A stretch of DNA of 64,000 nt from Methanotrichaceae archaeon (GCA_963803145.1 CAWDLW010000008.1:224001-288000), one strand, 5' to 3'; shown: positions 54,920-64,000, counted from the first letter of the stretch. Numbers and translations are program-made. The notes: generated from the sequence alone by a model not told the origin.

Positions 54920-55041
54920 TTGCTTTCTTTTTCTATAGTTTTCAGATCGCTTCGAAATATCCATCGCTTCTATTTCCTGCCCTATGGACTATTATCAGCT
55001 CTCCAATCAGCTCTCCAAATTTGTAATACTTTGATATACAA

Positions 55042-55054
55042 GTAATACTATTAC
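55042..55054. promoter_or_regulatory. Possible relBE autoregulatory operator GTAATA-C-TATTAC
   Basis: Perfect palindrome just upstream of the antitoxin; extra GTAATAC half-site at 55023. Confidence 0.45.
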
Positions 55055-55071
55055 GGTTTTGGTGGTTAATT

Positions 55072-55296
55072 ATCACTACATCTGTTTCCATAAGAATCCC
55101 AGATGATCTAGCACGTAGCTTAGAAAACCTTGCTAAAACGATAGAGCGTCCCAAAACCTACATAATTCGAAAGGCTATTGAGGAATATCTGGAGGAGTAT
55201 GCGGATTACCTGATAGCTCTGGAGAGGTTAAATGATAAGAATGACAGGATAGTCTCTAGCGATGAGATGAGGGACCTCCTTGGCATACAGGATTGA
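55072..55296 (+). CDS. RelB/CopG-like ribbon-helix-helix antitoxin with no canonical start codon (ATC/ATT); missed by ORF track
   Basis: (I)TTSVSIRIPDDLARSLENLAKTIERPKTYIIRKAIEEYLEEYADYLIALERLNDKNDRIVSSDEMRDLLGIQD; GGTGG SD upstream; overlaps the relE start. Confidence 0.82.
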   Translation: MTTSVSIRIPDDLARSLENLAKTIERPKTYIIRKAIEEYLEEYADYLIALERLNDKNDRIVSSDEMRDLLGIQD

Positions 55297-55298
55297 AT

Positions 55299-55540
55299 GT
55301 GACTTCCTCCCTTTCCCCTAAAGGGGAAGGGCTTCCTGCTTCAACGATTGGCTATTGCCATATCTCGACAGGCTCACCCCCTCAGTCCGAGGGTGCGGTT
55401 CCCGTTCTTAGAACGGTTAAGGTCGTCACTCAGCGTTCCAGGTTTTACATATAGGGCTTCCCTATACAACCAGATACCGTGAGTTCAGAGCAACTCTGCA
55501 AAGTAGCATTTTCAGCTTCCAGCGCAGACTTGACCTGATT
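55299..55540 (-). ncRNA. Putative TnpB omegaRNA (reRNA) scaffold at the element's right end; 5' boundary uncertain
   Basis: Structured non-coding stretch ending GTTGAAGCAGGAAGCCC-hairpin-GGAGGAAGTCAC, typical of IS605/TnpB right ends. Confidence 0.5.
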
Positions 55541-55654
55541 AGGAGATTATCATGATCAAATATATAGCTAATCCTGACAGCGAAAGTAATTCTGGAAAGC
55601 GTATGTCATTCGTCCCGTCCCTTGAAAGGGATGGGTCTTCTGCCTGCTTTCCCT
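55299..55654 (-). mobile_element. Non-autonomous IS200/IS605-family element (356 bp, MITE/PATE-like)
   Basis: Subterminal hairpins at both ends, right end ...GGAGGAAGTCAC, inserted 3' of TTAT on the minus strand, no target duplication, no transposase ORF. Confidence 0.85.
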
Positions 55655-55895
55655 ATAAGTACTCTGTCTCCTACGATCTAAAACATTTGGATAAGAGCAT
55701 TGCCAAGAGACTTATAAAAGATCTGGAGACTGCTTTATCCAGCAACCCACACTGCGGCGAATCTCTCTCGGGCCAGTTTAAAGGTATGTTTAAGCTACGC
55801 ATAGGAGATTATCGAGTCATTTATTCAAAAACCAAGGAAGGCGTTTTGATACTTCGGATAAGGCATCGCAGTGCCGTATATGAAAGATAACAAAT

Positions 55896-55970
55896 ATAAT
55901 TCAAAACCTACACTTTCATCTGGCGCTAAAACTATTGGCCTTATTAGCGCGCTCAGTCGCTGCGCGGACT
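55896..55970 (-). repeat. Island repeat copy R1 (partial), core 55923-55950
   Basis: GCGCTAA-N14-TTAGCGC; flanks match R2, R4 and R5. Confidence 0.8.
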
Positions 55971-56035
55971 TAAAGGGATTGCAATTTTAGGGATTATGAA
56001 TCGGATCCACTGTTACATTGCTTTTTGCGCCGACT

Positions 56036-56155
56036 AATAATTCAAAGCCCGCATTTGCTTCTGGGGCTAACACTAGCGGTTTTCCTAGCGCCCTCAGTCG
56101 CCGGGCGGGCTACCCCTAACCCCTCGCTGGGGGAAGGCTTTGGAGAACGCATGCT
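56036..56155 (-). repeat. Island repeat copy R2, core 56064-56091
   Basis: 65/69 nt identical (by eye) to inverted copy R4; outer flank resembles R1 and R5. Confidence 0.88.
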
Positions 56156-56598
56156 AAAAGGTTGAAGGGGATAAGATTAACTAATCCCTTAATCTGTTAT
56201 GCCGAGGCGCTAAGGAATTCATTAATATTTAGGAAATCCCCGGGATTCTTATAAATTAATATTTGATTATATTTCAAATCTCGGGTGTGAAATATATACC
56301 TGAAAAGGCAGAAAATTATATTACTAATATAATTAATAATGTGGATGGAGAAGGAAAAAGCACTTGGTCATTATATATCTTCCAAAAGCAATTAAATAAG
56401 CATTTTCATCGAAAATACGAAAAGACCGAGAAAAGATTATTTTGACTTAATTTCTTCGGGGATTTGCCCAAGCCGATCGACATATGCTTCTGCAAGCACG
56501 AATGCCACTGAAAATAGAATACTCCTTATTTATAGTTAATCCACGTAATTTTTACCTCATAGATACCCTTAAATAATTAATATACGATATAGCCGTTC

Positions 56599-57072
56599 AT
56601 GGGCAGGAAACCTGTAATTGTAAGACATATCTCGAAGGTAGAATTAGATCAATTGTATAAAGATGAGAGAAACATAAGAATTAAAGAACGGCTACTAGCG
56701 ATAATACATTTATACGAAGGAAAGAATGTATATATAGTAGCTGATATTCTTAAACGAAGTGAAAAGACAATAAAGAATTGGCTAAGCGATTGGAACAAAC
56801 AAGGATATGATGGATTGATACCACAGAATAGAAACGGCAAAGAACCAATGATATCTTTTGATGAATGGGATAAAATTATCGAAGAGATTGAGGACAAAGG
56901 AATGACTATAAAAGAGGTAATAAAATATGCAAAAGACACAAGAGGCGTAGAATATTCGTATAAAGGTGGTTGGAAGATTTTAAGATCAATAAAGAAAGTC
57001 AAATATGGTAAACCATATATTAGAAATAATAAGAGGCCTGTTAATGCAGAAAGTTTTCTAAAAAAAGGATAG
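56599..57072 (+). CDS. IS630-B transposase ORFA (HTH)
   Basis: Identical translation to 23871-24344. Confidence 0.9.
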   Translation: MGRKPVIVRHISKVELDQLYKDERNIRIKERLLAIIHLYEGKNVYIVADILKRSEKTIKNWLSDWNKQGYDGLIPQNRNGKEPMISFDEWDKIIEEIEDKGMTIKEVIKYAKDTRGVEYSYKGGWKILRSIKKVKYGKPYIRNNKRPVNAESFLKKG

Positions 57073-57128
57073 ATTCAGTAATAACAACAGTCAAAGAACC
57101 TATTATTGGATTCCTTGATGAAAGCTCT

Positions 57129-57596
57129 TTGCAACAGCGACCTAATACACGCAGGGTTTTAAACACCCATATGCTAAATTATCAACCTGGAAAAGTTAGG
57201 TCTAGAACTGTTTTTGGGTTCATTGCATTGAATGGAAATGATGAAGTTATGGTCTCTCACTCATCCAAGAAAGAAGATTTAATGATCTTCGCCCAAAAAT
57301 TGAGAAGTAACAATATTATGAGACCAATATGTATTGTCCTAGATAATGCTAGAATACATCTAGCTAAGAAGTTTAGGGCATTAGCCCACGAACTTGATAT
57401 CCATTTAATATATAACGTGCCATATTCCCCTGATTTAAATCCTATAGAGTTCGGTTGGAAGGATTTTAAAAGAGAGATATCAAAATATACTGATTTTGAT
57501 GAAGCTATTGAGGATGCCCAAGATTGCGCTTTACAAATATTTTATTCCAATAAAGATGGATACTCTAAGTCTTGGATAAAGCAGTTTATAAGGTAA
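57129..57596 (+). CDS. IS630-B transposase ORFB (DDE)
   Basis: Identical translation to 24401-24868. Confidence 0.9.
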   Translation: MQQRPNTRRVLNTHMLNYQPGKVRSRTVFGFIALNGNDEVMVSHSSKKEDLMIFAQKLRSNNIMRPICIVLDNARIHLAKKFRALAHELDIHLIYNVPYSPDLNPIEFGWKDFKREISKYTDFDEAIEDAQDCALQIFYSNKDGYSKSWIKQFIR

Positions 57597-57665
57597 AAAG
57601 TTGGGAGAATGACTATAAAATCTCCAGCCAAAAAGTTTTTGGTTAGTTGCAATAATCCAATTTGT

Positions 57666-59033
57666 ATGCAGCTCGAAGAGCCTTGTATTGAGCTAGGGCA
57701 ACGAATGGAAACACCAAATCAACCAATTGAAATATACCGTGGAGGACTAAAGGTCGAATATAAAGGAGTAGCTGTTCATGGGAAAGGGAGGATTTTCGTT
57801 AGGTGGCTACCCATGCCCGAATTATGGTTCGAGATGCAATTTTGCTATAAGTGTGGGCTTACATATCCAGCAACCATATCATCTGGTGAAGCCGTTGATT
57901 ATCTCATGAAAACAGGACCTAACCAATCTAGCAATTGGTTAAAAATCACTGGAATTCCTGAATTTGCCGCAAAAAGTAATGATCACTTATTTCCTAGCAA
58001 AGCTAAATTCCGTTCTATGCTGCGTAGCATTCGAGACCCCGATATCTTTGCCGGTAACATATACTTCCCACAGTCAAATAGGACTTGCGATTACATCAAA
58101 TTTTATCTAACAAATTTTAGGAGATTCAGAGATTTGAAATTAGAGGAAACGGCTTGGAGGTTAAAACTCGATGAGATCGATTTCACTAAACACCCCGATG
58201 ATGAATCGGATATCCTAGAAGGGAGGATGAAAAAGACCGGCGGGTTCATAATAACGCATGCTTGCACATTGGAACAATTAGATAAATCTACCTTTTCTCT
58301 TTCTGATGCTATAAATTACCTAAATGCTATTTATTTTTTCACCTCTTTTCTGAGTGGTACATGGTGTGGCCCAGCCCTTGCCAGAGGAATTATGTCTGAA
58401 CAAACAGTTTGGCAGGGTGGCATTCCTGATCGTTTGACTATGTGGACTTACCAAGGTGGATGCATCAGAGGATGGATGGGGGACATTGAAGAATTGTTTA
58501 AAAATTTCATGGTAGAATGGAGAGACAGAGAAAAACAAGATGCAATAAAGAGTTTAATACAGTGGTACGTGGAAGCAAATTTAAACGCAGGAGGAACAGA
58601 AGGGTCAATAATCCTCGTTCACTCTGCCTTAGAGCTATGTACTAACCTGAACGGGTATGAGGAGGAACGCCCAGCATACTGCATGATACGTAAGCTTATC
58701 AAAGATCTTAAAGTCAATTCTGATATAACTAGCAAACAGGCGAACTTGAGATTAGTATATGATGATAATAACTACAAATTAAGAAGAAAGGGCAATCTCG
58801 ACATATGGGACGGCCCGAGCATCTTTTCAGAACTAAGAAACGCAATTGTCCATACTAGAAGTACAAAGAACTATAGGCCGCCACTTCATCAGGTTCCAAA
58901 GGAAGCGAGGGATGAGGCGCTAGATTTAGGACTATGGTATCTCGAATTGTGTATCCTAAAAATGCTGGGGTACAAAGGGCAATATCTAAATCGTGTCAAT
59001 ATAGAATATGAAAAAGTCCCTTGGTGTTCCTAA
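57666..59033 (+). CDS. ApeA/YopA-like protein with C-terminal HEPN RNase motif (putative defence protein); native start likely 57666 or downstream
   Basis: Rx4H motif ELRNAIVH preceded by SALEL helix; ends with YLELCILKMLGYKGQY.NR; low GC. Confidence 0.68.
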   Translation: MQLEEPCIELGQRMETPNQPIEIYRGGLKVEYKGVAVHGKGRIFVRWLPMPELWFEMQFCYKCGLTYPATISSGEAVDYLMKTGPNQSSNWLKITGIPEFAAKSNDHLFPSKAKFRSMLRSIRDPDIFAGNIYFPQSNRTCDYIKFYLTNFRRFRDLKLEETAWRLKLDEIDFTKHPDDESDILEGRMKKTGGFIITHACTLEQLDKSTFSLSDAINYLNAIYFFTSFLSGTWCGPALARGIMSEQTVWQGGIPDRLTMWTYQGGCIRGWMGDIEELFKNFMVEWRDREKQDAIKSLIQWYVEANLNAGGTEGSIILVHSALELCTNLNGYEEERPAYCMIRKLIKDLKVNSDITSKQANLRLVYDDNNYKLRRKGNLDIWDGPSIFSELRNAIVHTRSTKNYRPPLHQVPKEARDEALDLGLWYLELCILKMLGYKGQYLNRVNIEYEKVPWCS

Positions 59034-59148
59034 AATGGTAATATAGATTAGGTCTATATTCAATGCCTATGCCCTCTAAAGATCAGGCTTTCCAGGTTTT
59101 TTATATTCGCGGATTGAGTAGGATACCATACCTGAAGTGGACTCAGGT

Positions 59149-59205
59149 GGAGCGCGCTAATATAGCCATTAGCTCTAGCCCAAAAAGAAGTTTAAGATTC
59201 TTAAA
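59149..59205 (+). repeat. Island repeat copy R3 (partial), core 59154-59181
   Basis: GAGC-GCGCTAA-TATAGCCATTAGCT-CTAGCCC; most similar to R1. Confidence 0.68.
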
Positions 59206-59223
59206 TAAAAATACTAGGGTCAA

Positions 59224-59496
59224 ATGAGTTCTAGTTCCCATGATTGCTGCTGTTACGCAGGCAAGATGCGTGAGGGCAAGCATGAATTTATGGCAAGAGT
59301 TGGAGATGAGATAGTAGTCATCAAGGATGTTCCGGCGCTTATCTGCGATATCTGCGGCGAGGTCGAATACACGCCTGAGGTGTCAGAAGAGATCGATGTG
59401 ATTATGGAGGAATTCTTTGCTGGGCGGCTGCTGGCTAGGCCACTGTCGGCGGGGGAGGTTGTGTTTGGGCAGCAAGATGCGGGGTCTATGGGATGA
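59224..59496 (+). CDS. YgiT-type zinc finger protein (MqsA N-terminal-like)
   Basis: IVVIKDVPALICDICGEVEYTPEV motif. Confidence 0.85.
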   Translation: MSSSSHDCCCYAGKMREGKHEFMARVGDEIVVIKDVPALICDICGEVEYTPEVSEEIDVIMEEFFAGRLLARPLSAGEVVFGQQDAGSMG

Positions 59497-59707
59497 GCGT
59501 CGCATATATGGCTCTAGAATCATTGTGGGATGAACTGAAAGTGTGGAATGTAGCTGTAAAGATGAATGCAAGGCAGGAACACATGCTCACTGCCTGTTCC
59601 AGAACCACCTGTAGAATCCTTTTGGCGCAGGTCCGCTATTATAGTTAATCATTGAGCTTATTGCCCTATAGATACATTTAATAATTAATGCGTGAAAATA
59701 CATAGGC

Positions 59708-60205
59708 ATGGGTAGAAAACCTATAATAATTAGGCATATATCAAAGATAGACCTTGATAAATTATATAAAAAAGAGACTGATCTAAGGATTAAGGAACGG
59801 TTATTGGCAATAATACATTTATATGAAGGGAAAAACGTATATGAGGTAGCTGATATTTTAAAAAGGGGCGAGAGGACAATAAAATATTGGTTAAGCAGAT
59901 GGAATAATCAAGGCTATAATGGATTGACACCAAAGAATAGAAATGGCAAAAAGCCAAAGATGTCTCTTGATGAATGGGATAGAGTTATTAAAGAAATTGA
60001 AGACAAAGGAATGACGATAAAAGACGTATTAAAATATGTAAGGGATACAAGAGGTATAGATTTTTCATATAAATATGGCTGGCGAATTTTAAGAGTAGTG
60101 AAAAAAGTTAAGTATGGGAAACCATACATCAGAAATGAAAAGAGGCCTGCAGATGCAGAAAGTTTTTTAAAAAAGGATAAAATCAGTGCTGACCACTGTT
60201 ACTGA
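59708..60205 (+). CDS. IS630-A transposase ORFA (HTH)
   Basis: Homologous to IS630-B ORFA. Confidence 0.9.
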   Translation: MGRKPIIIRHISKIDLDKLYKKETDLRIKERLLAIIHLYEGKNVYEVADILKRGERTIKYWLSRWNNQGYNGLTPKNRNGKKPKMSLDEWDRVIKEIEDKGMTIKDVLKYVRDTRGIDFSYKYGWRILRVVKKVKYGKPYIRNEKRPADAESFLKKDKISADHCY

Positions 60206-60713
60206 TCCTGTTATAGGATTTCTTGATGAAAGCTCTTTACAACAGCGCCCTAATACACGTAGAGTCTTAAACACTCATTTAATAAATTATAAACCTGGAA
60301 AGGTTAGATCAAGAACTATTTTTGGATTTATAGCATTAAATGGCAATGATGAGGTTATGGTTTCCAACTCCTCTAAGAAGGAAGCGTTGATGGCATTTGC
60401 TCAAAATATAAGAAATAATAATATTATGAGGCCAATTTGTATACTTTTAGATAATGCTAGAATTCATTTGGCCAAGAAATTTAGAAAACTAGCTGAGGAA
60501 ATCGATATTCACTTAATTTATAATATCCCCTATTCACCAGATTTGAATCCTATAGAATTCGGTTGGAAGGATTTCAAAAGAGAGATCGCCAAATACACTG
60601 ATTTCGATGAAGCTATTATAGCTAGCCAAGATTGCGCTTTAGAAATATTTTATTCCAAAAAGGATGGATATTCAAAGTCCTGGGTGGAGCGATTTCTTAG
60701 TGCAAAAAGCTAG
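60186..60713 (+). CDS. IS630-A transposase ORFB (DDE), in +1 frame relative to ORFA
   Basis: FLDES, LDNARIH, PYSPDLNPIE. Confidence 0.9.
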   Translation: MLTTVTDPVIGFLDESSLQQRPNTRRVLNTHLINYKPGKVRSRTIFGFIALNGNDEVMVSNSSKKEALMAFAQNIRNNNIMRPICILLDNARIHLAKKFRKLAEEIDIHLIYNIPYSPDLNPIEFGWKDFKREIAKYTDFDEAIIASQDCALEIFYSKKDGYSKSWVERFLSAKS

Positions 60714-61784
60714 GAGATTAACTATAATAGTGTTTGCTACAAAATCCCGCTTCGTCTTCTCTGTCTGTCCTCTTCTAGAGTCGATGTAATTGGTATAAGT
60801 AGCCATGCCATCGAGCCCAGGCAGCACGATCACTTGAACGTACTTCTCATCATAGAAGCAAGGCAAAAAAGCCGCAAGGGATTTGATATCTTCAGGCTTC
60901 CTAATGACACCAACCGATGGTGCATGCATTTCAGGGACGTTTCTGCTGCGGCCTTCCATGTAGTTCAAAGACCAGGGAGCTTTGCCTTCATTGATGATCT
61001 TCCTCACGAAGTCCGCTTCTGGCGACAAGATGTACTCATACCCAAAACAGTAAAACATCATTAAGAATGCAGCGTGTACAGCAGACAAGACCCTATTATT
61101 CAAGGCCGAGTGGGTATCGAATGAATAGCCCATCTTAAGCTCACTAGGATTGGATGCATGAGCTTCAAACTCTTCATTAACGGCTTGGTAGTTTGGATCA
61201 GCCCAATTCGTGGCTTTGAGCACTGCTGTAGGGCCGTCTTCATAAGAGATAATAGCGGCAGATGATTTATCATTAGCCCTAAAACGCACGAGTCTCTCAG
61301 TGCCAACTTTCCTGTGCGCCCAAGCAATGGCCTCTCTCATGTTAGCCACGTGGGAATCGTACTTCGAGCCTATCTTGGAATTGCAGTCACCACATTCGAG
61401 CGTGGTCATATGGCCCCCTGCGTTTTTAGGAGCAATGTGGCCGAGGGTTAATGCCTGATCAACGGCCAGCGCAGATCTATCGAAATCTTTGAGGCACACA
61501 GGGCACCTGAAGGTATCAATAGTTTCAGGTTCCACTTCCGATAGGTTCTGAGAATATATGTTGAAAAGAAGCTCTCGGTGTTCCTGAGCATTGAGGCACA
61601 TGGGATCTAAATTGTAAGCTCCGAGATATTTAATGCTTCGAGCATATCGAAGCTAGTACTTTAGCAAAAAAGTAGTGCAGCATAACCAGTGCTGTCAGCC
61701 TCAAGCGGTATCTATGGGATAGTAGTTACTGGTTTTCTTTACAGACAATTCTACTATCAGCCCATTCGTGCGAGGGCTTACTAC

Positions 61785-61898
61785 AGCATGCGTTTTCCAA
61801 AGCCTTCCCCCAGCGAGGGGTTAGGGGCAGCCCGCGCGGCGACTGAGCGCGCTGTAGTCACCGTTATTGTTAGCCCCAAAACGCCCATGACCTTTAAG
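61785..61898 (+). repeat. Island repeat copy R4, core 61849-61876
   Basis: Inverted near-identical copy of R2. Confidence 0.88.
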
Positions 61899-62012
61899 GC
61901 TCATACATGGCCAATGAAAAACTTGGCATCAACAAAGGTTTTTCATGGGAAAGTAAATATAAGGCAGTTAAATTGTATTAGCAGGTGCAAATGCTACGAG
62001 AAACAAAAGAAG

Positions 62013-62222
62013 TCATTCGAGCCTCTCTCCGTCCATTGGGGGCTCCTTTTTAACGGGCTCTATTTTGATATAGATTCCTTTTTTATCTGTTTCGAATCGC
62101 CAAATCAGCTTATCACCTTCCTTTAAATCAAATTGTCTGATAACGCTGGATGGTACTGTAGTGCGTAGGGATTCGCTGTTCCTATTTGCTTTGGTCAAGC
62201 TGGTGATTTGACCACGTGGCAT
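62013..62222 (-). CDS. AbrB/MazE/SpoVT family DNA-binding protein
   Basis: SLRTTVPSSVIRQFDLKEGDKLIW motif. Confidence 0.85.
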   Translation of the reverse strand: MPRGQITSLTKANRNSESLRTTVPSSVIRQFDLKEGDKLIWRFETDKKGIYIKIEPVKKEPPMDGERLE

Positions 62223-62369
62223 GCCTAGTCCATTGCCCGGTTATATTATATAACATTACCGAAATATCTGCCAAAATTTCTATCTAAATAGTTTGGATTA
62301 CTTGCGCTCCTTGCCAGTTAGCTTTAAATATCTTTAGCCCATTTATAGGTAACTTAAGAGGTAATATAA

Positions 62370-62591
62370 GTGGCTCAGGATAAGGCTTCCAAAAGCGATA
62401 TAACCTCACGCAAGCGGTATGTTGGACCAATAGCTAACTGTGGTAGTCAAATCGAGAGGATTAGCGATCATGCCTATAAGATAAAGTCGCAATCAGGCGA
62501 GGAATTCTATGAAGTTATAGAGACTGAGGATGGGATAACTTGCATTTGTTCGGATTTTGTTTATCACGGCGATCAAACGGAGGCGATCTGA
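62370..62591 (+). pseudogene. Truncated SWIM zinc-finger protein (possible 5' remnant of a SWIM-DDE transposase-like gene)
   Basis: YKIKSQSG..FYEV......CICSDF is the first half of a SWIM finger; the distal CxH is missing; GAGGT SD. Confidence 0.6.
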
Positions 62592-63173
62592 ATGCCCCCC
62601 ACAAACCACCCCGAAAACGCCGATCTGGTAGCGACCGATCCCGCAATCGCAGATGATTCAGCAACCACAGACACGCTATCAGAGCTAAACACAACACTAG
62701 CCGAGCTCCAACCCCTAGCCTCCAAGATCTCCGATCTGCAAAAGGAAACCCTTGAAAAAGAATCCTCAATCCTAAAAGCGATCCTGGAGAAGCTCAAGCC
62801 TCTGGTGCCTCTGCTGAGTGAAGACTGCGAGCAATGTTACCGCCGTGAGATTATCCTTCTGACCCGCGAGGAGAGAGTACAGCTTGAGGAGGGTTTAGGC
62901 TTTTTCAGTGAGTACAGGCTGATTCTCTATGAGAATGGTCTGCTGGTAAGGGCACATCGCTATGGCCAATCAATGGAAGGTCTGCACTTAGGATGGGAGA
63001 ATACAGATGAGGATGTGCTTACACCCGAGGCTGCAATAACTGCATTCGGTTTCACGGCAATTTCAAAGGGCTTGATGAAGGCTCTTGGTGAGGTGTCATC
63101 GATGGCCATTCTTAAAGAAGAGCTTGAGGGCAGGATCGCTGCATTAACTAATGCTCTCGAGACTCTATTATGA
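62592..63173 (+). CDS. Hypothetical protein with N- and C-terminal coiled coils
   Basis: 193-aa ORF with natural composition; no recognised motif. Confidence 0.7.
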   Translation: MPPTNHPENADLVATDPAIADDSATTDTLSELNTTLAELQPLASKISDLQKETLEKESSILKAILEKLKPLVPLLSEDCEQCYRREIILLTREERVQLEEGLGFFSEYRLILYENGLLVRAHRYGQSMEGLHLGWENTDEDVLTPEAAITAFGFTAISKGLMKALGEVSSMAILKEELEGRIAALTNALETLL

Positions 63174-63262
63174 GGCAACAGCGAGCATGCTAGCGGAAAA
63201 GTTGCAAAAGGCTGCACGAGATAATGGTGATGGATTATTTGATCTTAGGTTGGATTCAAAAT

Positions 63263-63368
63263 TCCAGATCCTTTCCCCAGCGAAGGGTCAGGGGCAGCCT
63301 GCACAGGCGTTGGAGCGCTAGCAAACCCGCAAGTATTAGCCCAGAAGAAAGTGTAGGTTTTAAGTTAT
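63263..63368 (+). repeat. Island repeat copy R5 (diverged), core 63315-63342
   Basis: TTCCCCAGCGAAGGGTCAGGGGCAGCC...GCGCTAG-N14-TTAGCCC-AGAAGAAAGTGTAGGTTTTAAGTTAT. Confidence 0.82.
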
Positions 63369-63648
63369 CGTAGTCTTGCCCTTCTTCATCCCGAAGACCG
63401 CATGAGCTACAATATCTTTTCATGAAAAATCCTTCAAAAAGGATTAAGCCTCGTATTTTTGCCAGAAATATCAGGATTCTTGCCAGCAATGCCGCTTCAT
63501 AAGCTTGACCTCATAGAAGGTTCACAAAGATTTTAGATCGATATCTGGTTGAAAAAAAAGAAAAGAAAGCTGCCCCTACATAGGGGCATTTCGTTTTCGA
63601 GGTTCTTGAGAGTTGCCTAGCTTTGTCTGCTCTTTGTCTAACGTTTCC

Positions 63649-63999
63649 CTAGCTTTGTTGGGGATAAGGTACCGCCTTGAGGGGGAAAGTGATTGTATCC
63701 TCGATGACTGGCGGGTTGTAGAGTTGAGGTTCGTCATTGCATTGCCCACATGTGAGCTTGGCCACAATAATCTCCTGCGCAGTTGCAGTATTGTTTTCTG
63801 GATCGACAGTGACCTTTAGATACCCCAGCGCCATTGGCAAAACCGCCTGTTTCCCGACGGCATATATGGTAGAGTTGGGGATTTCACCAGTCGGAGCCCC
63901 CCCGTTGCCGACTACGAAATATGGTATCCCGCTTATGTTATATCTCTGGTAATTGTGGGTATGGCCTGCGAAATTCGCGCTGATTCCGTATTTGTGATA
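63649..63999 (-). CDS. Metallophosphoesterase (purple acid phosphatase-like), 3' part only; runs off window
   Basis: Manual translation YHKYGISANFAGHTHNYQRY..SGIPYFVVGNGGAP...LGYLKVTVDP. Confidence 0.8.
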   Translation of the reverse strand, partial: YHKYGISANFAGHTHNYQRYNISGIPYFVVGNGGAPTGEIPNSTIYAVGKQAVLPMALGYLKVTVDPENNTATAQEIIVAKLTCGQCNDEPQLYNPPVIEDTITFPLKAVPYPQQS

Positions 64000-64000
64000 C

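Follow-up and report, generated by a model that had tools for sequence, protein, structure and literature searches.

A modular hairpin repeat between toxin-antitoxin and defence cassettes in the genome of a Methanotrichaceae archaeon

The DNA considered here (the window) is a stretch of 64,000 nucleotides, C8:224001-288000, of a 4.13-Mb, 51-contig Methanotrichaceae assembly that is a metagenome bin (G000). Near its right end, an island of toxin-antitoxin (TA) and defence genes is divided by five copies, R1 to R5, of a repeat. On balance we favor reading R1-R5 as a mosaic hairpin repeat, similar to REP, BIME and BOX elements, that drives the accretion of cassettes through recombination, most plausibly homologous recombination. 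The repeats probably act as recombination points between TA and defence modules. Individual copies are gained or lost alone in intergenic DNA, accessory islands contain direct arrays with repeats between TA/defence operons, and cassettes between repeats occur in different neighbourhoods in related genomes.

The Methanotrichaceae rank among the major methanogens that use acetate, and the way in which their accessory genomes change is poorly understood. In three genomes of the same genus, the repeat family marks the majority of the variable TA/defence islands and the places where cassettes are exchanged, and thus provides a concrete handle on the assembly of defence repertoires in these archaea. 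We found no description of the family in the literature, with most subscription journals outside the coverage of the search.

Copies of the repeat and its structure

An earlier note on this DNA described five 28-bp cores with inverted arms between the genes of the island, and all of their coordinates and strands are correct. The pattern GCGCT-N16-YTAGCSC has six matches at these five sites, since R1 is symmetric and is matched on both strands, and none elsewhere in the window (chance expectation 0.02; 0 of 100 shuffled sequences reach six). Also as described, the first 55 kb are copy-free (nhmmer, zero copies in window positions 1-55,890), and the shared extensions beyond the core are confirmed, with R2 87% complementary to R4 along 97 nt and a 28-nt 3' end common to R1 and R5 (89%). 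R1 is 76% identical to R2 along 75 nt. The unit, however, is a larger, modular element of ~110-270 nt that has the core at its center. The copies, in window coordinates, are:

55891-55986, minus strand: R1, a partial tandem copy with module B only, without the 5' GC-rich hairpin A (nhmmer E 1.1e-20, composite alignment)
56033-56156, minus strand: R2, a full copy whose 5' 'U' extension reaches ~56200 (nhmmer E 1.4e-34, alignments)
59120-59210, plus strand: R3, a diverged copy, at the right-hand end of a module that G001, a genome of the same genus, and a sediment strain both lack (nhmmer E 2.4e-15)
61784-61878, plus strand: R4, a full core whose 3' extension is displaced by a miniature insertion sequence (IS) (nhmmer E 3.7e-30)
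63251-63372, plus strand: R5, a full copy 78 nt downstream of a same-strand gene of the p193 family (nhmmer E 4.2e-30)

R1 is located 47 nt downstream of R2 in the orientation of the repeat, and R2 followed by R1 forms a tandem composite. The island has a sixth copy 1.5 kb past the end of the window (contig position 289485-289605).

A profile constructed from the five copies gave 127 matches on the G000 contigs at E up to 1 (nhmmer), of which 108 are copies at the family cut-off of E<1e-5. Chained at distances of ≤5 kb, the 108 copies form 54 clusters: one each of 10, 9, 8, 7, 6 (the window island) and 4 copies, two of 3, twelve pairs and 34 singletons, such that 20 clusters have two or more copies. 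Of the neighbouring pairs separated by 0.2-5 kb, 38 are direct repeats and 7 are inverted (binomial p=3e-6), with a median spacing of 1.35 kb, while pairs >5 kb apart are direct in 17 cases and inverted in 15; the 9 tandem pairs in the genome are all direct. Replication-strand orientation was considered and rejected as an explanation, since at three window sizes the copies agreed with the local GC skew in 46 of 108, 54 of 103 and 47 of 85 cases and with the strand of the majority of genes in 41, 51 and 42. Copies within the family are 80-90% identical, and a second G000 subfamily has the same 5' part and diverges after it.

Based on BLAST, the repeat is present in 7 of 41 related genomes: G000, both same-genus genomes (G001 and G002, each with many copies) and four genomes of three other genera. 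With a covariance model it is recovered from 15 of the 101 Methanotrichaceae genomes searched (G000 included), and it is multi-copy in only four of the 16 genera sampled. The element of the three other genera has a shorter core in which approximately the first 50 nt (hairpins A and B) are conserved while the 28-bp core is not. Records carrying a repeat-linked gene family are metagenome-assembled genomes of Methanotrichaceae archaea.

The anatomy of the element was determined from 52 near-full copies aligned with their flanks. The core of ~85-110 nt has a GC-rich part, hairpin A (CCCC-loop-GGGG), followed by hairpin B, with a 5-bp covarying stem and a 9-nt loop (GGCGAYTGA) that hardly varies, and then by the short, CTAG-type hairpin C; a closing stem, GGGGY/RCCCC, surrounds hairpins B and C. 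A CTTATAG-like box is conserved ~25 nt upstream of the core, and there is a short T run on the 3' side. Optional parts are a 5' 'U' module of ~45 nt, a 3' extension, a ~65-nt linker, and one or two extra half-copies without hairpin A. Hairpin B, the 28-bp core of the earlier note and the 3' extension together constitute module B. A hidden Markov model of the 5' module, which is short and has little power, gave 25 matches, all of them beside a core, and no solo 'U' module. The spacer between the arms, given in the earlier note as always 14 nt, has that length in R1-R5 but not throughout the family: among the 62 of 86 examined copies that fit a loose pattern, it is 14 nt in 46, 13 nt in 14, 15 nt in 1 and 9 nt in 1.

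Two alternative structures were compared on 33 copies. In hairpin B (alignment columns 64-68 with 80-84), the left arm (GCGC) of the 28-bp core pairs with bases 15 nt upstream, and compensatory changes from CG to UA and from CG to GC are found in 8 and 11 of the 33 copies, respectively. Pairing of arm with arm has zero compensatory changes and is broken in 8 of the 33 copies at column 82, which covaries with column 66. In the four-helix structure 93.9% of cells are paired, compared to 30-48% with slid partners, and none of 500 shuffles has a covariation score as high. G-T wobbles exceed A-C mismatches in helices A-D (39 vs. 15), and thus the strand reading GCGCTAG...TTAGCCC is more likely to be the folding strand. 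The stem variants of hairpin B are array-specific. On the evidence of these alignments, the combination of a covarying stem and an unchanging loop in hairpin B implies that some factor would recognize the repeat in single-stranded form, as RNA or ssDNA.

Cassette arrays and their variation between genomes

Pfam scans covered the window, four arrays and three more stretches that carry repeats. As the earlier note proposed, the repeats partition accessory TA and defence genes into modules. TA pairs in the arrays are of the types UPF0175/DUF3368, PIN/MazE, ParE, HicA, MazF, HepT/MNT, MqsA-like and DUF4258/DUF2283; other genes encode ABC-3C components, YhcG nucleases and acylphosphatase-domain proteins, and the mobile elements are IS630, IS110, IS1 and TnpB. 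The arrays also contain gene fragments, such as an epimerase in versions of 63, 118 and 309 amino acids, each adjoining a repeat. These three versions occur at one locus (L001, G000:C8:432000-435300) in three ~1-kb tandem units, each with a repeat and then the 5' part of the NAD-dependent epimerase gene; the units look like the result of unequal exchange between repeats. Relative to the open reading frames (ORFs) around them, 28 repeats are in sense and 36 in antisense orientation (co-directional ORFs), with 28 between convergent and 13 between divergent ORFs, and the pattern differs between arrays.

The suggestion that copies would cluster at variable genes is borne out by the arrays scanned, in which copies bracket TA/defence operons, but not by the 34 of 108 copies that are singletons. 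Scatter outside accessory genes, which the earlier note had named beforehand as counting against its proposal, was found: the three singleton loci examined all lie between genes that are conserved in a same-genus genome.

For comparison with relatives we used parts of G001 and G002 as well as contigs from sediment runs. Modules have been gained, lost and reshuffled between genomes, in agreement with the earlier note, based on the absence of one window module from G001 and from the strain in sediment run X4, and on cassettes located in other neighbourhoods. The variable module is:

56178-59220, no strand assigned: IS630-like copy 1, a gene for a 474-amino-acid protein, and R3; absent from G001 and from the run X4 strain

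The G001 locus has relE, three repeat modules, ~150 nt and then the YgiT gene, with ~56300 to 59220 missing, while the X4 contig skips from window position 56177 to 59221, with 122 letters in place of 3,043 nt. The right edge of the module is ~10 nt after R3; the left edge, at ~56300 where homology to G001 fades, is not at a repeat. An MqsA-like cassette, the sole one aligned in full, is ~95% identical between G002 and G000 and repeat-flanked in both, with homology stopping within both flanking repeats. At another locus, the whole repeat moves with its 5' flank, and hairpins A-B differ even though the DNA on either side is orthologous; such patchy A-B differences have the pattern that gene conversion would give. 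Among 36 repeat copies at G001 and G002 loci, both flanks could be mapped in G000 for 10; the flanks are <1 kb apart for 3 of these, and on different contigs or ≥2 kb apart for 7 (5 distinct loci).

The repeat itself also varies between genomes. G001 has a ~285-nt insert with a full element between two convergent genes, where G000 has 9 nt. At a site on contig C17, a copy is present in G000, and G001 is ~160-200 nt shorter yet retains the U module; at a site on C26, the spacer between convergent genes is the repeat in G000 and unrelated AT-rich DNA in G002; and a copy on C34 is common to G000 and G002. Terminal inverted repeats and target duplications are absent from the two clean pairs of empty and filled sites. 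Other joints on sediment contigs (two to 'opposite strands' at repeats, one that 'goes back' between p193 paralogues, and a skip of 633 nt that has a side of 26 nt) most plausibly reflect cross-alignment of repeats or paralogues and were not used.

An IS110-family element of 1,536 bp, with a 419-amino-acid transposase (Pfam), is present in at least 8 copies in G000 (97.4-100% identity). All 8 examined insertions are at the same point in the repeat, inside the 28-bp core, between ...TAGTTT and TAGCCCC.... In the 238-nt 5' non-coding part of the element, a 10-mer has the same sequence as the target where it spans the insertion point (chance roughly 0.02), as expected if this part encodes a bridge-RNA-type guide. 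With its many copies, the repeat is a natural landing site for an element of the IS110 family (bridge-RNA type). The full-length and miniature forms are:

C8:490325-491860 (contig coordinates): IS110-family element, with 7 further copies on C34, C23, C27, C18, C42, C9 and C15
61879-61949 (window coordinates), minus strand: 71-nt IS110 miniature, with 44 nt of one end (86%) and 15 nt of the other (100%)

The miniature is inserted directly after TAGCCCCA of R4, and for this reason R4 seems to have no 3' extension; at locus L011, a G002 copy has a 140-nt relative inserted at the corresponding position.

In the mechanism that we propose, recombination between two direct copies would loop out a cassette with one repeat, and the circle could recombine with any other copy, re-inserting the cassette. 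Loop-out and re-insertion would maintain direct orientation and build arrays, whatever the enzyme. Unequal exchange and gene conversion between copies would generate duplications, deletions and patchy repeat variants. Most likely, the process would be powered by general homologous recombination over the ~100-nt repeats; the alternative is a dedicated recombinase that acts in trans. We favor homologous recombination because breakpoints occur at several positions and are accompanied by patchy conversion tracts, because arrays contain tandem duplications and gene fragments, because repeat variants are homogenized within arrays, and because no recombinase is linked to the repeats. If no dedicated recombinase acts, the family would represent a clear archaeal counterpart of the bacterial REP, BIME and BOX elements, a type of repeat poorly documented in archaea.

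Several points weigh against this interpretation. Direct arrays of short, TA-rich cassettes are also a hallmark of integron arrays, and a trans-acting recombinase is possible. Breakpoints are placed to within tens of bases only, as the copies are 80-90% alike, and the orientation statistics use crude ORF calls. The bin has 6.77% contamination, so the count of 108 copies is perhaps somewhat inflated; a same-genus genome in 7 contigs is likewise rich in copies. The core has an unexceptional folding energy (mean z of -0.57 vs. mononucleotide shuffles), and the structural case thus consists of hairpin B covariation and wobble bias; a thermodynamic strand test with RNA and DNA parameters scored the two strands as equal.

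Known repeat systems and alternative explanations

REP and BIME elements of enterobacteria and pseudomonads, including the REPIN/RAYT systems, are high-copy extragenic hairpins that form mosaics of units and linkers, serve as favored targets for IS110-family elements and are recombination substrates. The repeat family resembles them in being a set of high-copy extragenic hairpin units in mosaics (108 copies, linkers, tandem half-copies). It differs in its unit, which is 85-110 nt with three or four hairpins rather than a 20-40-nt REP with a conserved 5' tetranucleotide, in the absence of a RAYT-like gene flanked by copies, in forming direct arrays around cassettes rather than alternating pairs, and in its archaeal host. 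BOX elements of Streptococcus pneumoniae, and those of the Correia/ERIC type, are intergenic, with modular A-B-C organization, a variable number of middle modules, ~100 copies and predicted RNA folds. The likeness is in the modular build, the ~100 copies and the intergenic position; there is no sequence relation to the repeat described here, and we know of no case in which BOX, Correia or ERIC elements delimit TA/defence cassette arrays.

Three of the readings, namely recombination between mosaic repeats, an integron-like system and an RNA element, are not mutually exclusive. In the integron-like reading, a doubtful contender, the repeat would be an attC-like multi-hairpin site of ~100 nt, and cassettes would be moved via a folded single strand by a recombinase encoded elsewhere, either one of the XerA-like paralogues or another enzyme. 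Such an archaeal system, fairly unlikely to be what operates here, would build and reshuffle TA/defence arrays across Methanotrichaceae chromosomes; if a dedicated recombinase does act, integron-like gene capture would have been invented a second time, independently. Two or more co-oriented sites <4 kb apart, the criterion for clusters of attC sites lacking integron-integrases (CALIN), are found here in arrays of 10, 9, 8, 7 and 6 copies, with 38 of 45 neighbours direct at the 1.35-kb median spacing. As with attC sites and CALIN, including the repeats of Vibrio superintegrons, there are direct arrays with ~1-kb cassettes and many TA pairs, and these cassettes are found in other contexts in relatives. 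The structure is strand-biased with a conserved loop, and its single-stranded form would matter, as with attC. The repeats are homogeneous and genus-specific like those of sedentary chromosomal integrons, and they are targeted by an IS110-family element in the way that attC is targeted by the IS1111-attC group.

An attC site is defined as an imperfect palindrome, R''-L''...L'-R', with RYYYAAC/GTTRRRY boxes, whereas consensus and covariation for this repeat give local hairpins within a short closing stem, with neither a single long imperfect palindrome nor the R''/R' boxes. The 34 singletons, the gain and loss of the repeat alone between conserved genes, breakpoints at several positions with patchy conversion tracts, mixed gene orientation inside cassettes, and gene fragments and tandem duplications within arrays also differ from what is seen for integrons. 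Most of the integrons reported from archaea were integrase-less attC clusters (Ghaly et al. 2022, PMC9668308), which favors the integron-like reading; that study covers archaeal integrons in 75 genomes, and Methanothrix, Methanosaeta and Halobacteriota go unmentioned in its main text. A Helitron paper in which Methanothrix is mentioned (PMC8788227) was set aside as irrelevant, the passage concerned probably reflecting a misassigned TraA gene.

The recombinase content of G000 bears on both the integron-like reading and the model of the earlier note. There are 13 Phage_integrase matches, 11 of which are above the cut-off, and at least 6 full-length XerA-like recombinase paralogues (L056-L061), a point in favor of both readings, although all are under the curated XerA cut-off (best 162.7 vs. 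220 bits). Against the integron-integrase model, the best recombinase scores 84 bits, compared to a cut-off of 265. Proximity of copies to a tyrosine-recombinase gene, as anticipated in the earlier note, is not observed: no such gene is within 4 kb of any copy, with the nearest at 4.4 and 5.7 kb and the rest at ≥20 kb.

Another possibility, which we consider unlikely, is that the repeat is chiefly an RNA element: a small RNA gene transcribed from a promoter of its own, or a protein-bound module that works in cis on RNA processing, stability or termination. Its place between cassettes would then be secondary. This would be consistent with the compensatory changes and invariant loop of hairpin B, the wobbles on the plus strand (39 vs. 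15), the upstream CTTATAG-like box and the 3' T run, and the conservation of the 5' core across genera. Kink-turns have a canonical stem, a 3-nt bulge and tandem G.A pairs, and are bound by L7Ae; the loop of hairpin B, with the layout stem-GGC-GA-YU-GA-stem, presumably resembles a kink-turn or K-loop, a likeness on paper that may favor an RNA role. Orientation to neighbouring ORFs is near-random (28 sense vs. 36 antisense), which argues against a role in untranslated regions. Furthermore, the folding energy is unremarkable, a search of window positions 55000-64000 with the curated covariance models of Rfam 15 gave no match at E up to 1, and an RNA role alone leaves the direct orientation in arrays unexplained.

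It is improbable that the repeat is a non-autonomous transposon, i.e., a MITE or an IS200/IS605-type palindrome moved by a resident transposase, with the arrays representing insertions tolerated in accessory islands. Repeat-only insertions and deletions between conserved genes, together with the high copy number and subfamilies, would fit this explanation, and hairpins without terminal inverted repeats or target duplications would fit single-strand (HUH) transposition, for which three identical Y1 transposase genes are present. These IS200-type copies have no repeat nearby (the copy on C33 is ~14 kb from the nearest), and G000 also has one broken copy and one weak fragment; the surroundings of Y1 and TnpB genes are dissimilar to the repeat, and none is near a copy except by chance. 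Independent insertion would not yield 38 direct pairs among 45 neighbours, the copies are 80-90% alike, unlike the near-identical products of recent bursts, and their orientation is independent of GC skew and gene-strand bias. An origin from TnpB and its omega RNA was also rejected, as the 17 TnpB-domain matches have no consistent adjacency to repeats.

The least credible explanation is that of the earlier note, in which 28-bp Xer/dif-like (11-6-11) sites surround pdif-type modules; we regard it as very improbable, and it is contradicted on three defining features. The pdif modules of Acinetobacter plasmids are Xer-dependent and have 28-bp duplex 11-6-11 sites with fixed spacing and alternating orientation, with TA genes among their content. 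The 28-bp length, the partly inverted arms, the small accessory modules with TA genes and the variation of modules between genomes are shared; here, however, the left arm forms part of a hairpin in which it covaries with upstream bases rather than with the right arm, the arm spacing is 13-15 nt rather than fixed, and neighbouring sites are direct (38 of 45 pairs) rather than alternating. In addition, the GC-rich 5' extension is conserved across genera and the 28-bp core is not, recombinases are not linked to the copies, and 34 of 108 copies are singletons.

Genes and insertion sequences of the window island

Apart from the repeats and the IS110 miniature, the following features of the island were annotated (window coordinates):

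55552-55890, plus strand: RelE/ParE-family toxin gene, with its stop codon abutting the 3' end of R1
56529-57619, plus strand: IS630-like copy 1, with HTH and DDE_3 ORFs and terminal inverted repeats
59224-59496, plus strand: gene for a YgiT/MqsA-type zinc-finger antitoxin-like protein, which begins 14 nt beyond R3
59636-60730, plus strand: IS630-like copy 2
62592-63173, plus strand: p193 gene, a member of a 21-locus paralogous family

The gene labels of the earlier note stand for RelE/ParE, the YgiT finger and an AbrB/MazE fold; its HNH assignment is weak (E 9.7e-6, below the cut-off), and HEPN and SWIM have no family match. The 474-amino-acid 'HEPN' protein (window 57609-59033) has zero Pfam, NCBIfam or PADLOC matches, and an Rx4H-like RNAIVH motif near its C-terminus is the sole hint of this label. 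The 73-amino-acid 'SWIM' protein has zero Pfam and NCBIfam matches, and in PADLOC only a weak match to AbiEi (E 0.0038), unrelated to AbrB. No tRNA or tmRNA fragments that might represent attachment sites were found in the window.

The p193 proteins (~190 amino acids) have a long helix followed by a beta-sheet domain and further helices, and are 50-80% identical between copies. A co-oriented repeat is ≤144 nt downstream of the gene at 9 of the 21 G000 loci, and there are at least 17 matches in G002. We considered p193 as the repeat's own protein and rejected it, with zero Pfam, NCBIfam or PADLOC families and no fold match (model pLDDT 67.8; Foldseek E 0.12 at best; highest VIA Z 6.8, under the meaningful level; Atlas matches to unnamed clusters). 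On a contig of run X4 (L037, 13736 to 9962), the 5' part of one p193 paralogue is joined to the 3' part of another 3.8 kb off, reflecting either recombination between paralogues or an assembly chimera.

The earlier gene list omitted the two IS630-like copies, which are located inside two of the proposed modules. They are ~80% identical to each other, and both have terminal inverted repeats and split HTH and DDE_3 ORFs; the split is probably bridged by a programmed frameshift.

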